From: a virus
Lineage: Duplodnaviria; Caudoviricetes
Virus record (IMG/VR): IMGVR_UViG_3300007770_000016
Coordinates: 1-55,594 of that record
Strand: one strand, 5' to 3'
DNA: 55,594 nucleotides
The notes beneath the pieces are model-generated. The model worked only from the letters and a program-made list of their open reading frames with translations. It did no database searches and was not told the origin of the DNA. A program made the translations under genes and the position numbers. Position 1 is the stretch's first letter. Each line of letters opens with the position of its first letter. Positions 26,422 through 47,612 of the stretch are shown piece after piece.

Positions 26422-26922
26422 TTAATCTGGTAAGTAACCTGCGAATTCCATTCCAGGTTCATCATAGAACCAAGAAATACATAGGTTGGAATATGTTTCC
26501 TTGAGATGATTATAGATTCCTTCGGCTGGACCCCACGCAGTATCGAAGCTTACTTCTATTTCATCTTCTTCATTCTGCTCAAAATCTGTACTACCCGGAT
26601 CCCACTTGGTACCCCAATTATTATTACACCAAGTGTACCAACATTTAGCACCATACTTTTCTGTAAATTCTTCAGACATTTTCTTAGTCATTTTTATAGA
26701 ACCATCATACTCACATGGTTTTTGGTCAGCATATTCTTCTTCAGTACAGAAGCTTCCTGATGAATGATCTCGTAACTCTTGAGGACATGGCAATATGTTT
26801 TGGAAAGAAAATTCTGCATCATCTTCCATACTTATCTTTGTTTCTTCTCGAAACTTTTTGCGTTCTTCATCGGACATGTCGTGAAGACTAATTCTAACTC
26901 TGTTGTAACACCAATTAGGCAT
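26422..26922 (-). CDS. DUF1281/YubB (Api92-like ferredoxin-fold) family protein
   Basis: MPNWCYN start, WYTWCNNNWGTKWD, FDTAWGP, YDEPGMEFAG; SD ACAGGAG. Confidence 0.8.
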   Translation of the reverse strand: MPNWCYNRVRISLHDMSDEERKKFREETKISMEDDAEFSFQNILPCPQELRDHSSGSFCTEEEYADQKPCEYDGSIKMTKKMSEEFTEKYGAKCWYTWCNNNWGTKWDPGSTDFEQNEEDEIEVSFDTAWGPAEGIYNHLKETYSNLCISWFYDEPGMEFAGYLPD

Positions 26923-26944
26923 GACAATTCTCCTGTGTTGGGGG

Positions 26945-27398
26945 TTAAAGGGCGGGGGGTAGTAATGGGTAGTCTCAGCTAACTTACTATCTACCTTCAT
27001 GTACATCTGAGCGTTATACTACCCCCCGTAGATTGTGGGGTGTGTAGGCACAAGGGCGTTGCAATCTAATCTCTCACCGACCCTACCTTACGGTACTAAG
27101 TCCTACCTCACCCCGTAGATTGTGTTACCTCTTCGATTGCGGTCGATTCACAGTGTCGAAGTTAACCAGTATAGAACCCCGTTAAGATAGATGCCCTACT
27201 AAGTGTTATATACATGATAAACCTAGTTACAACGAGCAAATGCTGACCGACTTGGGCTAAAAGGAAAGGTAACAATTAGTAGATACCCTGTACAGGCGTT
27301 GACTTATATTTCATACCGGTTTCGCCTACCAAGGTACCTACTAAATGGGGCTCCCGTCATCGGGAAGAATCGGGGAGCCCTAAGAGTGGGGGTTCTAA
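26945..27398 (-). ncRNA. Candidate large structured ncRNA (family unknown)
   Basis: Intergenic ~450 nt with several 8-12 bp helices, a crossed helix pair, a GUAA tetraloop and a G-U pair that forms only on the minus strand. Confidence 0.5.
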
Positions 27399-27402
27399 TT
27401 AA

Positions 27403-27927
27403 TTATCCACCTAAGAGTGTTTGAAGATACTCTGATTTGTAAGTGGATGTGCCTCGTTCAGTATACTGACATCGAACCATACATGCAACGGTAGAGTCAC
27501 CATTTAGTTTGGATTCTACCTCTTCGAATGCTGCACCTAGGTCTGTTGGCTCATAACCGAGGATGGTTTTGAGGTGACCTTTCAAGCGACTGAGTTCGAT
27601 CTTAGCACGAATTTGAGAACCCTCGTGCGTGAGAACTGATGGATCTGTTGGGATGGTCATAGGTGCACCATTCCAGATTAGTGGCTCTGTTCGATCTGGA
27701 TCTTCACAGAGTTGATAGTGGAATTGTACACTGATAGCAGGAAATTCTTGCTTGTCTGATGTCTGACGGAAGGTTCCATTTTGTACGTTCATTCCGAGTA
27801 CATAACAAGCGTGTTCACCTTTTGCTGGCCACTCTCCTAGTGATCCCATTCCTTGGTCTGCGTTTGCGGTTTCGAAATCCGATTGTAAGTTTGCGAAGAT
27901 TGCCTTCGTCTCATTTGAAATGCTCAT
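27403..27927 (-). CDS. Putative single-stranded DNA-binding protein (DUF669-like)
   Basis: WPAKGEH..YV, RLKGHL motifs; directly downstream of the Sak4-like gene. Confidence 0.55.
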   Translation of the reverse strand: MSISNETKAIFANLQSDFETANADQGMGSLGEWPAKGEHACYVLGMNVQNGTFRQTSDKQEFPAISVQFHYQLCEDPDRTEPLIWNGAPMTIPTDPSVLTHEGSQIRAKIELSRLKGHLKTILGYEPTDLGAAFEEVESKLNGDSTVACMVRCQYTERGTSTYKSEYLQTLLGG

Positions 27928-27934
27928 AGTAATG

Positions 27935-28831
27935 CTAATCCTTTTTCTGAGCGGTTATGTATTGTTCTTCGAATGAAGCCCACGCTGACTCCTGTGGAAG
28001 TTCAATACGGTCGGGTAATTGTACACGACATTTAGTGATTCCTGCAAGGGACTCATCGTTAATTGTCATGTAATATTTCTGTGTTTTTATGGTTTCTGTT
28101 TTCTTTGGTCCGGGTTTTCCTCCGATTCCTGGTAGTTGTACTTGTTTGGATTCTGTTACCCAATCAGATTCGAATGCTGCAACGAGTTCGAACATCGGGA
28201 AAAGTCTTTTATAGAACGAGTCGGTTATTGTGAGTTCGGGTCTGATTGTATATCGGTCATCACCTAGAGGAATCTTTGCGTTTACTAGATGACAAATATA
28301 AAAGAATCCATATCCGTTTCTACGGAGATCTAGAGAGAAGCGTAGGAGTCCATCGTATACGTCATCCCATGCTCTACGACCATCGAGTTGTTTCCAATCC
28401 TCTTTACCCATCTTCTTTGTTACATGATCTTTCATGAGTTGAATAGCGGGTCCTAAACTATCAAGGATAATTGTTTGTGGTCTTGGGCTATTAGATTCTG
28501 CCATCTTAATAAGTTGTTCTTTCTTCTTCTCTATGGCTTCCCAAGTAAGAACCATCTTATTGCCTCCTACATCCATTGGTTCACCTTGTGTGGTCACTCC
28601 GGGCCATATACATGCCTGTGGATTAGGATTAGTTGTTGAAGTTCCATCAGTATTAATGATGAATGCTTCTGGGTTTGATTGTATAAAAGATGATTTACCT
28701 GTTCCCGGCATACCTACTAGTAGTCCTAGTAACTGTCCGGGTGGATGAACCATCCTCTGTCCTGAAAAACCAAGCCCAGAAAATTTCTGAGCTCCAGTTT
28801 TACCTACTGCTATGTCCTGTGTCTGAGTCAT
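27935..28831 (-). CDS. Sak4-like AAA_24 ATPase / recombinase
   Basis: Walker A GMPGTGKS, Walker B IILDSL, FYICH. Confidence 0.8.
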   Translation of the reverse strand: MTQTQDIAVGKTGAQKFSGLGFSGQRMVHPPGQLLGLLVGMPGTGKSSFIQSNPEAFIINTDGTSTTNPNPQACIWPGVTTQGEPMDVGGNKMVLTWEAIEKKKEQLIKMAESNSPRPQTIILDSLGPAIQLMKDHVTKKMGKEDWKQLDGRRAWDDVYDGLLRFSLDLRRNGYGFFYICHLVNAKIPLGDDRYTIRPELTITDSFYKRLFPMFELVAAFESDWVTESKQVQLPGIGGKPGPKKTETIKTQKYYMTINDESLAGITKCRVQLPDRIELPQESAWASFEEQYITAQKKD

Positions 28832-30666: not shown

Positions 30667-30849
30667 TTATACACTTGATACCCAAGACCATAAAGTGCGG
30701 ACTGCACCTGCGATCCAGTTTACACCTTCCCACGCAAATGGGAGTAGTGCTAGGGTAACTAATAAACTTCGGGTGATGCCTACTTTACTTAAAGTAGAAT
30801 CGACAACATCACTACCACTCCAACAACAATTACTTTTACTTTTACTCAT
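30667..30849 (-). CDS. Small membrane protein
   Basis: Hydrophobic/amphipathic C-terminal half; SD AAGGA. Confidence 0.6.
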   Translation of the reverse strand: MSKSKSNCCWSGSDVVDSTLSKVGITRSLLVTLALLPFAWEGVNWIAGAVRTLWSWVSSV

Positions 30850-31243
30850 TATCTAATTCCTTCTTGAGTTTGATTATACGGGCTTGACCAAGTGCCTTGA
30901 TTGCCCACAACGCTGAGATTACTCCAGATGCTACGATGATCGGGAGTGCTATAAAATGAAAGTATTCTTGTAGTAAAGTGTTCATAAAGATGAGACCTAT
31001 CCCACCAAGAATAGGCCACCATCCTTTACGTCCTGTGCTTACTACAAGTAATACTATTCCCCCTAAAATTGAAATCCCCCCTATCCCGCTAAGGATAGAG
31101 AGGTTCTCTGGGATTGCTGCGGATGCAGTATCTTTAATCGTAGACGATATTCCACCCGTCTTGGGTTTAGTACCAAAGATTAGGTCTACTGCACCACATC
31201 CAGAGAGAAGAGAGAGAGAAAGGATTGTTAAAAATTTCTTCAT
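30842..31243 (-). CDS. Lipoprotein with additional TM helices (possible lysis/spanin-like component)
   Basis: Lipobox LLSG-C16, then 2-3 hydrophobic segments. Confidence 0.6.
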   Translation of the reverse strand: MKKFLTILSLSLLSGCGAVDLIFGTKPKTGGISSTIKDTASAAIPENLSILSGIGGISILGGIVLLVVSTGRKGWWPILGGIGLIFMNTLLQEYFHFIALPIIVASGVISALWAIKALGQARIIKLKKELDNE

Positions 31244-37468: not shown

Positions 37469-37664
37469 GGTGTACTCCTAACATTAGTGCCGCACCCTCT
37501 ACCGAACCAAGGGGGTCTTTTTTTAATAACTTGATTTTTTCTTCTTGTAAAAGGAAGATTTCGTTGTTAACTCTAGAAAGTTCCTCCACCAAAATCGAAT
37601 GGCGTGATTCTAGGTTCTCTATATCCTTGTTCAATTGGTTCAAGGGTTGGTTGTTTGAACTCAT
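37455..37664 (-). CDS. Small coiled-coil protein
   Basis: SD AAAGGA; heptad pattern. Confidence 0.5.
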   Translation of the reverse strand: MSSNNQPLNQLNKDIENLESRHSILVEELSRVNNEIFLLQEEKIKLLKKDPLGSVEGAALMLGVHPKLN

Positions 37665-38367
37665 TAATGAATTCCTTTATTTTTATAGTTTTACGGGGTA
37701 GAGTGAATTGATTGGAGTTTCTCCAATGTGATGTGTGAGCATTTAGGAGGGAATAACCATTTCGATCTTTGAACTCTTGGTGTTCTGGTTCTTCCCAATG
37801 TTTGAGTATTGGTTTGATATCTGTTGGATTAATGATGTTATTTTTCATTGCTCTGATTAGGAAGTCGTGGACTTCTGTATTTGATGAGAAGTCGTAGTCT
37901 CTTAATTTTTCAATTGAGTGGAACATTTCATTTTTGCGTTCTTCTAGTCCGAATGCGAAATTACGTAGTTCGGAATAGATTGTATCCCACACGTTACGGG
38001 TGTGTTTGTTGCTTACAATGAACTCTCCGGTGTAGAGACCATTTGAACAAACGAATGTGTCTGTGCCTTCTATGAGGGCTACTGGTAGTGTTTTGTCGTG
38101 ACTGTTAAAGACTGCAATCTTGTATTTGTAGTCATCGGTAGAGAATTTCTCGTTTTGTATGTTGAGTTTCCCTACGTATCGTTGACCATCGTGTGAAATG
38201 AGGTGTTCTGCATTTTCTGTTGAGAAGTTGAGTACCTCAAGGGTTTCCGCCAATCTATGGAACAGTTGGTGGTGTTCTACAGGTTGATGGGTTCGTGTTG
38301 CTTCTGGTATGGGAACTTGTTTAAGTTGATCCCACGTTACTAATTCTGTTGCTCCGTGCTTTTTCAT
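37573..38367 (-). CDS. DUF932-family protein
   Basis: NSHDKT ... FVCSNGL ... KHT motifs. Confidence 0.8.
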   Translation of the reverse strand: MKKHGATELVTWDQLKQVPIPEATRTHQPVEHHQLFHRLAETLEVLNFSTENAEHLISHDGQRYVGKLNIQNEKFSTDDYKYKIAVFNSHDKTLPVALIEGTDTFVCSNGLYTGEFIVSNKHTRNVWDTIYSELRNFAFGLEERKNEMFHSIEKLRDYDFSSNTEVHDFLIRAMKNNIINPTDIKPILKHWEEPEHQEFKDRNGYSLLNAHTSHWRNSNQFTLPRKTIKIKEFINEFKQPTLEPIEQGYREPRITPFDFGGGTF

Positions 38368-47281: not shown

Positions 47282-47612
47282 ACTAGATAAGACTTCTGAA
47301 AGGGCTGTTCTCACATTAAAATCTTTAGATGTTATGGAGTTCCTACAAATTGCAGCACCTGCTATTAGGGACTTGGGGATTTACAATATAGACGGTTGGG
47401 CGGGAAGTTTCGATTCCTTATATAAAGAAATTTTTAATTCCCTATTTGATAAAGATAGAAATTTATACCCTCACTGGTATCCCGTAGTATTGGAACTTAA
47501 ATCTAATTCTGTTTGTGCTGGGGATCAAAAGATGCTTGCTGCTGCAATTGCTAGGGTTGGTGCAACCTATGCATTTGTAACTATTTCTATGAACAGGAAT
47601 AACACCGAATAA
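47193..47612 (+). CDS. Hypothetical protein
   Basis: SD GAGGAG; TAATG-coupled to terL. Confidence 0.55.
   Translation: MTKSKTKTKRKPTTKSSKPKPEVVKIKVPKLDKTSERAVLTLKSLDVMEFLQIAAPAIRDLGIYNIDGWAGSFDSLYKEIFNSLFDKDRNLYPHWYPVVLELKSNSVCAGDQKMLAAAIARVGATYAFVTISMNRNNTE

Follow-up and report, generated by a model that had tools for sequence, protein, structure and literature searches.

A candidate array of structured RNA modules in the largest intergenic gap of an uncultured phage genome

RESULTS

Overall organization of the locus

The window analyzed here, the 55,594-bp sequence IMGVR_UViG_3300007770_000016 in its full length, is a complete viral genome with direct terminal repeats. Its minus-strand gene block extends from approximately 43971 down to 25117, and inside this block a gap of 480 nt (26923 to 27402) separates a gene for a protein of 174 amino acids (aa) from a DUF1281-like gene, the minus strand being the sense strand. 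The initial annotation counted this gap among the largest of the genome, and it is in fact the largest: its 480 nt are counted to the ATG at 26922 (a spurious start farther upstream would leave 396 nt), and the next-largest gap has 330 nt. The latter, an open reading frame (ORF)-free stretch at 47282 to 47611 that immediately precedes the large terminase gene, does not resemble the array modules described below, and no second copy of the array was found elsewhere in this genome.

The gap is noncoding and structured on its minus (sense) strand. It contains many stop codons in all six frames (8 to 18 in each sense frame), the longest open stretch is 37 codons, and the GC content is 44 to 49%, compared with 41% for the genome. 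Folded as a whole, the minus strand gives a z score of –2.9, with 0 of 100 shuffled sequences as good, versus –0.96 for the plus strand. Taken part by part on the minus strand, the z scores are –6.0 for the P domain (–29.6 kcal/mol; plus strand, –22.0 kcal/mol and –3.9), –4.0 for M10, –2.8 for H0, –1.6 for M9, and –1.2 for M5, the last two being not significant by folding energy alone. These parts form a chain in the order H0, P, M5, M9, and M10, in which each of the three M modules is closed by its own terminal helix and two ACAAUCUA linkers lie between them (Table 1). A promoter scan found no promoter-like –35/–10 hexamer pair inside the gap on either strand.

Table 1. Positions of the features at the locus, and of hotspot genes in related loci
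Feature	Position	Strand	Description
Sak4-like annealing protein gene	27935-28831		Adjoins the SSB-like gene
Upstream SSB-like gene	27403-27927	–	ORF, 174 aa
H0 hairpin	27348-27395	–	C-rich flank ACCCCCACUC and hairpin with apical loop UUCCC
P domain	27276-27344	–	Variable insert closed by a conserved 15-bp helix UUAGUAGGUACC.../...GGUAUCUACUAA
Module M5	27124-27273	–	110-nt conserved core with five helices and a variable apical hairpin (P4 tip)
Linker 1, ACAAUCUA	27116-27123	–	Core of the first 14-nt repeat
Module M9	27037-27114	–	Three-way junction with a GUAA hairpin, from the fold
Linker 2, ACAAUCUA	27029-27036	–	Core of the second 14-nt repeat
Module M10	26953-27027	–	Variable interior closed by an 11- to 12-bp stem GGGGGGUAGUA/UACUACCCCCC
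Shine-Dalgarno sequence AGGAG	26930-26934	–	From the sequence; precedes the DUF1281-like gene
DUF1281-like gene with Shine-Dalgarno sequence	26422-26934	–	Gene 26422-26922; ATG at 26920-26922
Hotspot genes in relatives	L008:4253-4852, L018:3605-4644, L017:4063-4773, L002:4046-5260		Downstream of the SSB-like gene

The label "SSB" given earlier to the upstream gene stands in part. The 174-aa protein matches no Pfam or PHROG family, and it is the AlphaFold model (pLDDT, 73) that points to such a function: the best Foldseek matches of the model are OB-fold single-stranded DNA (ssDNA) binders (PrgE, RPA, and SSBs), all of them weak and none at an E value of ≤0.001, the top match being PrgE (E value, 3.9e-3; TM, 0.36 to 0.44). 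We therefore call the protein SSB-like; it is probably an OB-fold ssDNA-binding protein. The "DUF1281" label is similarly a near miss, with a match to Pfam DUF1281_C (E value, 1.9e-4; 21.7 bits) that falls just below the cutoff of 22.8 bits; the same protein matches phrog_20518 (E value, 3.6e-23). The genome's own DUF932 protein (37573 to 38367, minus strand; 26.4 bits, above the cutoff) is encoded approximately 10 kb from the array.

A search of sequencing runs found five RNA-type libraries (two are on record as RNA) that contain 4% of the sampled words. Four of them yielded one contig each, 151 to 258 nt long and approximately 91% alike, spanning only the SSB-like gene (27384 to 27582) and none of the array. 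These contigs, two of which are the same 258-nt record, end 11 to 19 nt past the SSB-like stop codon (27384 to 27392) and before H0, and they are too few and too short to mark a transcript end.

All the individual pairings read from the sequence by the initial annotation are present at the stated places. A repeat finder returned the 9-bp pair 27172-27180/27389-27397 and the 12-bp pair 26953-26964/27017-27028 at 100%, and the helix 27276-27287/27333-27344 lies inside 18-nt arms (27273-27290/27330-27347) that match at 83%. Single-module folds give the 8-bp helix 27267-27274/27123-27130 as 7 bp with one additional U-A pair and the hairpin 27348-27356/27371-27380 as 27348-27355/27373-27380, and they reproduce both the stem 27109-27114/27037-27042 and the UACC-GUAA-GGUA GNRA hairpin. 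The 14-nt direct repeat was likewise recovered, as an exact 14-mer found twice in the genome and contained in a direct repeat 27017-27037/27104-27124; with up to three mismatches, the 14-mer has 8 matches in the genome versus 3.3 expected, and 4 of 100 shuffles reach 8 or more.

The H0 hairpin follows the SSB-like gene

H0 is 95 to 100% identical across 19 related loci. Throughout the lineage, the conserved parts are the flank CCCCCAC and the loop (U/C)(U/G)CCC, and an inner U-A pair becomes C-G in relatives. In three array-less relatives (L017, 3526-3616; L018, 3526-3604; L021, 1746-1805; L numbers denote related loci), flank and loop are kept and the stem sequences differ. Because H0 follows the SSB-like gene even in these, it belongs to that gene and not to the array, for which gene it could serve as an operator or as a 3'-end element. 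A 10-nt exact direct repeat, CCTAAGAGTG on the plus strand, occurs at 27379 to 27388 and 27410 to 27419, 31 nt apart, and takes in the H0 flank and the last part of the SSB-like reading frame.

Constant cores and variable tips in the P domain and M5

All 11 arrays of this lineage contain both strands of the P helix, separated by 42 to 135 nt of unrelated sequence. For M5, searches gave 18 genuine stretches in IMG/VR and a further 11 in JGI metagenomes, from which 13 distinct copies were aligned. Since all module copies were found with exact patterns of 14 to 29 specified bases, the sample is biased toward conserved copies. The M5 cores are 88 to 99% identical to the copy of this genome, and 91 of 110 columns are invariant, many of them unpaired. 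The P4 tip is instead one of five unrelated hairpins (28 to 39 nt) or a UUCG, UACG, or UCCG tetraloop, depending on the copy, and the total length is 113, 141, 147, 150, or 152 nt.

The five helices of M5 are the same in the RNAalifold consensus and the single-sequence minimum-energy fold. In addition, GUCGGU (27246 to 27251; GUCGRU across copies) probably pairs with the loop AUCGAC (27142 to 27147) as an internal pseudoknot, which we propose here rather than regard as proven; the only variation in this helix is G-U to A-U, in 2 of the 13 copies. With the pseudoknot added, 98.9% of the cells in the 13 copies are paired, versus 25 to 44% for slid partners. Four pairs (12 cells) are changed on both sides, and the covariation score is reached by 0 of 500 shuffles in a control made without correction for relatedness on a small sample. 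There is little covariation in M5, since the cores are nearly constant (26 of 35 pairs are the same in every copy), and recent transfer, rather than selection, could account in part for their near-identity between phages.

M9 and M10

Only one homologue of M9 was found (in L301), and the comparison therefore involves two sequences. The core is kept, the GUAA hairpin is replaced in L301 by a hairpin approximately 39 nt longer, and three pairs are changed on both sides, two from G-C to A-U in the closing stem and one from A-U to G-C. As far as alignments of this size can tell, the compensatory changes in homologues (four pairs in M5 and three in M9) support the predicted structures of both modules; such changes and the sense-strand bias, which together characterize structured RNA, are both found at this locus, and the H0 stems, which differ between relatives around a kept loop, point the same way. 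M10 is closed by a stem that is a 12-nt perfect inverted repeat and belongs to a "GGGGNGUAGUAG" stem group found in other arrays; its closing stem GGGGNGUAGUA/UACUACNCCCC encloses different interiors in L005, L013, L234, L298, L300, L301, and L303.

An 8-nt linker separates the units

The 14-nt repeat CACAAUCUACGGGG consists of the two linker copies, each extended on one side by the final base of a stem and on the other by the initial bases of the stem that follows. In the gaps of relatives, ACAATCTA or a one-letter variant of it separates hairpin-closed units, and the motif, with one mismatch allowed, is five times denser in gaps than in flanking sequence. The 21 curated arrays contain 63 linkers, 42 of them exact copies of ACAATCTA. 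In 24 of the 42 segments between linkers (39 to 192 nt), the two ends pair in a closing helix of 6 bp or more, compared with 4.6% of shuffled segments and 5.5% of random genomic pieces; the other 18 have no clean terminal helix of this length and are mostly two-unit composites or have bulged closing stems.

The linkers are flanked by C-rich sequence upstream and G-rich sequence downstream, with a G directly after the linker in only 1 of 62. The flanks could enclose the linker in a helix of 6 bp or more in only 2 of 62 cases, against 3% in the control; because the enclosure rate equals the control rate, the linker is a single-stranded joint rather than the loop of a repeat hairpin, and a CRISPR-like repeat hairpin around it was rejected. 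A role of ACAATCTA as a promoter was also rejected, the six exact copies outside the gap all lying in coding sequence, five of them on the minus strand. Clusters of one-mismatch linkers proved too noisy as an array finder (308 clusters versus 214 to 249 for control motifs).

The modules form a pool distributed among unrelated phages

Relatives of the SSB-like protein were found on 21 uncultured viral contigs at 67 to 93% identity. Across 19 loci, only the first approximately 72 nt of the gap are kept (93 to 100% identical), and in close relatives, whose SSB-like proteins are 81 to 93% identical, the rest is replaced by other modules; L024 is the only one of the 19 that also shares gap nucleotides 130 to 287. 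Most related phages have their own ORF-poor gap of 300 to 830 nt at the same place, and all-against-all blastn resolves these gaps into mosaics of common pieces in different orders. Approximately 37 further contigs of uncultured viruses bear arrays of 280 to 940 nt, each at a single locus; this number comes from the contig names of the 54 loci that show module similarity. Scans of viral contigs with 15-mers and 14-mers returned mostly chance matches, the true ones being picked by blastn; the apparent module matches in L314 and L326 to L328 were chance.

Judged by sequence comparison, the modules constitute a pool of at least 12 types common to unrelated uncultured phages, in which the cores are constant and the peripheral hairpins are exchanged. 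Their order and number vary between arrays; of 22 arrays, 13 have M1 plus linker, 9 have M5, 9 have M4, 6 have M8, and 2 have M9, and the M1 hairpin as a rule stands before the first linker. A second group of phages, with genomes of 58 to 66 kb, bears M5, M4, M6, M8, the M1 hairpin, and other modules; here, the arrays directly follow a DUF932 gene (E value, 2.9e-37), reach 940 nt, and comprise five to nine units, and several of them continue into a U-rich tract and then a near-consensus TTGACA/TATAAT (sigma-70-like) promoter. One module type, present in L234, L303, L312, L024, and L022 and absent from this genome, has a 31-nt invariant loop, CGUAUGGUUACUCAUAAGAACAACAGCAUUU, surrounded by stems that differ completely between phages. 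This loop contains CUCAUAA, which we take to be the anticodon-loop sequence of methionine tRNAs.

Arrays are always flanked by co-oriented genes; they follow a stop codon directly, often stand immediately before a Shine-Dalgarno sequence, and precede at least six different downstream genes. Together with the absence of modules from all 75 more distant DUF1281 loci, and with the terminator and sigma-70-like promoter that separate the array from the next gene in several phages, this diversity leaves the earlier suggestion of a leader specific to a DUF1281 operon unsupported. The result for the 75 loci also led us to reject DUF1281 as a partner of the array. The place downstream of the SSB-like gene is a variable hotspot of accessory genes where, in relatives, C5 DNA methylases, DUF932, a GT2 glycosyltransferase, or cpYpsA-SLOG are encoded, with or without an array. 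The SSB-like protein itself was rejected as an array partner, since three genomes of the second lineage lack it. In a blastp comparison of this genome with that of a 65-kb phage bearing an array (96% complete), two ORF pairs match at an E value of ≤1e-5; both ORFs are small, with no informative family for either. One of the two, a 133-aa predicted lipoprotein with membrane segments (30842 to 31243, minus strand), is shared with the otherwise unrelated array-bearing phages at 32 to 38% identity; it was rejected as an array partner, being absent from a 95%-complete array-bearing relative.

Searches for known families and elements

The arrangement matches no RNA family on record. Rfam 15, whose families include RNase P, tmRNA, group I and II introns, GOLLD, ROOL, HEARO, self-cleaving ribozymes, and STAXI, gave no match at the gathering threshold over the whole 55.6-kb genome. 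At an E value of ≤10, the region 26700 to 27600 gave three chance-level matches (two snoRNAs and Ysr251; 10 to 18 bits versus thresholds of 43 to 100), and at an E value of ≤1, 10 related loci gave none; the L252 array had only two chance matches, to miRNAs. ARAGORN detected no tRNA or tmRNA in this genome or in 36 related loci. The initial annotation, which did not recognize the region as a tRNA, tmRNA, RNase P, or intron, was right on this point, and no other Rfam family takes their place.

The gap and a 940-nt array had no blastn match among 50,697 GenBank phage records, and exact-pattern scans of 185,579 prokaryotic genomes (one per species) found nothing. CRISPR arrays are characterized by repeats of approximately 23 nt or more and unique spacers; only 8 nt repeat between units here (14 to 21 nt in this genome), and no Cas family occurs among the scanned proteins. 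The near-identical tandem 34- to 45-nt repeats and adjacent endoribonuclease toxin gene of a type III toxin-antitoxin antitoxin array were not found either, Tandem Repeats Finder returning no rows and the flanking genes being the SSB-like and DUF1281-like ones. A scan for intrinsic terminators (a GC-rich hairpin and then a U tract) gave terminator-like sites only on the plus (antisense) strand (27374 to 27396). Our literature search found no description of such arrays; among the >10,000 candidate viral RNAs that Fremin et al. (2023; PMC10690425) report from the same kind of data, the supplementary lists may already include some of the modules.

DISCUSSION

A proposed route from array to free RNAs

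We propose, with about an even chance of being right (roughly 0.5), that the gap is an array of independently folding RNA modules that are exchanged among phages, transcribed with their neighbors, cut at the linkers, and bound by host factors. The sense strand folds better, the conserved helices include G-U pairs, and the tips are of the UUCG, UACG, UCCG, and GUAA types, all of which favors RNA rather than DNA as the acting form. Since the array sits between co-oriented genes and has no promoter-like site inside, it would be cotranscribed with the flanking genes of an early or replication operon. RNase E prefers single-stranded A/U-rich sites, and the invariant, single-stranded, A/U-rich joint between stable stems suggests that a host single-strand-specific endonuclease of this kind may cut at the linkers. 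The freed RNAs, 60 to 150 nt long, might then each bind a host factor and act as decoys or sponges in host takeover or counter-defense, a role to which the invariant unpaired positions, the spread across phages without shared proteins, and the hotspot location point.

Alternative explanations

A purely cis-acting role, which we consider rather unlikely, would make the modules 3' untranslated or intercistronic hairpins that protect the upstream mRNA from 3' exonucleases, set processing sites, and decouple neighboring genes, none of them working in trans. The position of the arrays after stop codons, between co-oriented genes and often next to a Shine-Dalgarno sequence, suits such a role, as do the last module, which can act as a terminator in several phages where a U-rich tract and then a promoter follow, and H0, which stays behind the SSB-like gene even without an array. 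Stabilizing hairpins, however, need no conserved loops, yet most M5 columns are invariant and many of these are unpaired; nor would five to nine different modules in a row be needed, and the downstream gene differs between phages. Selfish mobile hairpins of the REP or MITE type, inserting and accumulating at a ACAATCTA target and functionless for the phage, would account for the same cassettes in unrelated phages, their varying order and number, and the 8-nt sequence that bounds every unit like a duplicated target site. We regard this as improbable: the module ends differ by type, so that one transposase could not recognize them all, and no transposase lies beside the arrays, which occur exactly once per genome and always in sense orientation, with unpaired core positions conserved while the stems covary, a pattern indicating selection on RNA. 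DUF932 and DUF1281 genes are typical of plasmid leading regions, in which ssb genes also occur, and the SSB-like, Sak4-like, and DUF932 genes that adjoin the arrays bring to mind an element acting as ssDNA, whether a replication origin, a primosome assembly site, or Frpo-like ssDNA promoters, for which folding of a single strand would also be expected. Although Frpo elements are described as hairpins upstream of ssb (PMC11541004), we judge such a function quite improbable here, given the lack of promoter hexamers in the gap, a GC content above the genome mean, the absence of AT-rich stretches and of any cumulative GC skew turn at the site, and repeats that are 87 nt apart and neither tandem nor phased like iterons. 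UNCG tetraloops, moreover, stabilize RNA and not DNA, an argument of the kind put forward for STAXI (PMC2864571).

The initial annotation had pointed to a candidate pseudoknotted noncoding RNA of approximately 450 nt; as one large globular molecule, it would be held together by the crossing helices 27389-27397/27172-27180 and 27267-27274/27123-27130. Both helices exist and cross on paper, the 9-bp helix appears in the full-length minimum-energy fold, and L024, the only other array with both strands, keeps 7 of its 9 pairs. The long-range helix is nevertheless not conserved in relatives: those with the 5' strand have no M5 and hence no 3' strand, and in the other phage group, where the 5' strand is missing, the M5 copies keep GGGGUYCURUA within the hairpin of M5 itself. 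The strand at 27172 to 27180, GGGGUUCUA, which had been paired with the H0 flank, is one arm of this hairpin (UUAAC-GG...YU-GUUAA), 100% paired in the 13 copies, and the other crossing helix is the conserved closing stem of M5. Because the M5 arm is kept without H0, and H0 has nothing to pair with in relatives that lack M5, the crossing is most probably a coincidence, or else no more than an alternative conformer restricted to this phage. M5 alone folds into its own hairpin, the module order and content differ in every array, and close relatives keep only about 72 nt of the gap, the rest being swapped for other modules; one large RNA is accordingly very improbable. Hardly credible, finally, is a remnant of decayed protein-coding genes. 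Some relatives do have ORFs at the same place, for example, of 404 to 471 aa after the arrays; the stops in all six frames, insert-length differences that are not multiples of three (M5, 113 to 152 nt), compensatory changes, and cores more conserved than any protein common to the phages speak against it.

Significance and comparison with known systems

Beyond the array reading itself, we put forward only tentatively the idea that "RNA cassette islands" are a new class of phage element: polycistronic strings of at least 12 distinct, highly conserved RNAs, some pseudoknotted and possibly catalytic or ligand or protein binding, in which ACAAUCUA would serve as both processing site and exchange junction and each RNA would target a different host factor. 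If this were true, the island would be the RNA counterpart of the protein anti-defense islands that occupy the same kind of hotspot. Phage noncoding RNAs are known mostly as single regulators or tRNAs, and at least 12 conserved RNAs that are exchanged between phages with almost no common proteins and are nearly invariant at their unpaired positions point to specific molecular partners in an uncultured, apparently marine host. M5 has the profile of a ribozyme, an aptamer, or a specific protein-binding RNA, and the module is small enough for biochemical and structural work, while the fixed linker offers a simple handle for finding such arrays in metagenomes.

Several known systems resemble the array in part. 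The tRNA cluster of T4, with its two small stable RNAs, places structured RNAs in one transcript from which host nucleases release them, and the present arrays likewise would contain several different RNAs, each closed by a terminal helix; they differ in having no tRNA, in closing stems of 6 to 14 bp that do not form cloverleaves, and in a conserved linker that has no counterpart there. ToxI and CRISPR arrays have long repeats of 28 to 45 nt and a nuclease gene beside them, the units being identical in ToxI and the spacers variable in CRISPR. Like them, the present array would be an RNA cut at a repeated site into singly acting units, whereas only 8 nt repeat here, the linker lies outside the hairpins, and the "spacers" are the conserved part. 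In the CsrB and RsmZ sponges, one motif (GGA) is repeated in loops; many stem-loops with short single-stranded motifs between them are a common trait that suggests, by analogy, titration of a partner, although here it is ACAAUCUA that is repeated between the hairpins, which are themselves diverse and conserved.

The Frpo and ssi ssDNA promoters of plasmid leading regions are described as long hairpins near ssb that rebuild –35 and –10 boxes (PMC11541004). Long hairpins near ssb-type genes are found at the present locus as well, but within a double-stranded DNA phage, with RNA-type loops and without such boxes. The nearest described thing in context is STAXI (RF01728), for which the account of Weinberg et al. 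(2010; PMC2864571) gives one pseudoknot repeated two or three times in Enterobacteriales, of unknown function, located near ssb, antirestriction, and DNA-handling genes of mobile elements, with UUCG loops that argue for RNA over ssDNA. Both consist of structured tandem units near ssb-type genes. The gap has no RF01728 match, with no Rfam match beyond chance level at an E value of ≤10, and where STAXI repeats a single unit, the arrays of these uncultured phages string together many unit types that differ from one another and are joined by a fixed 8-nt linker.
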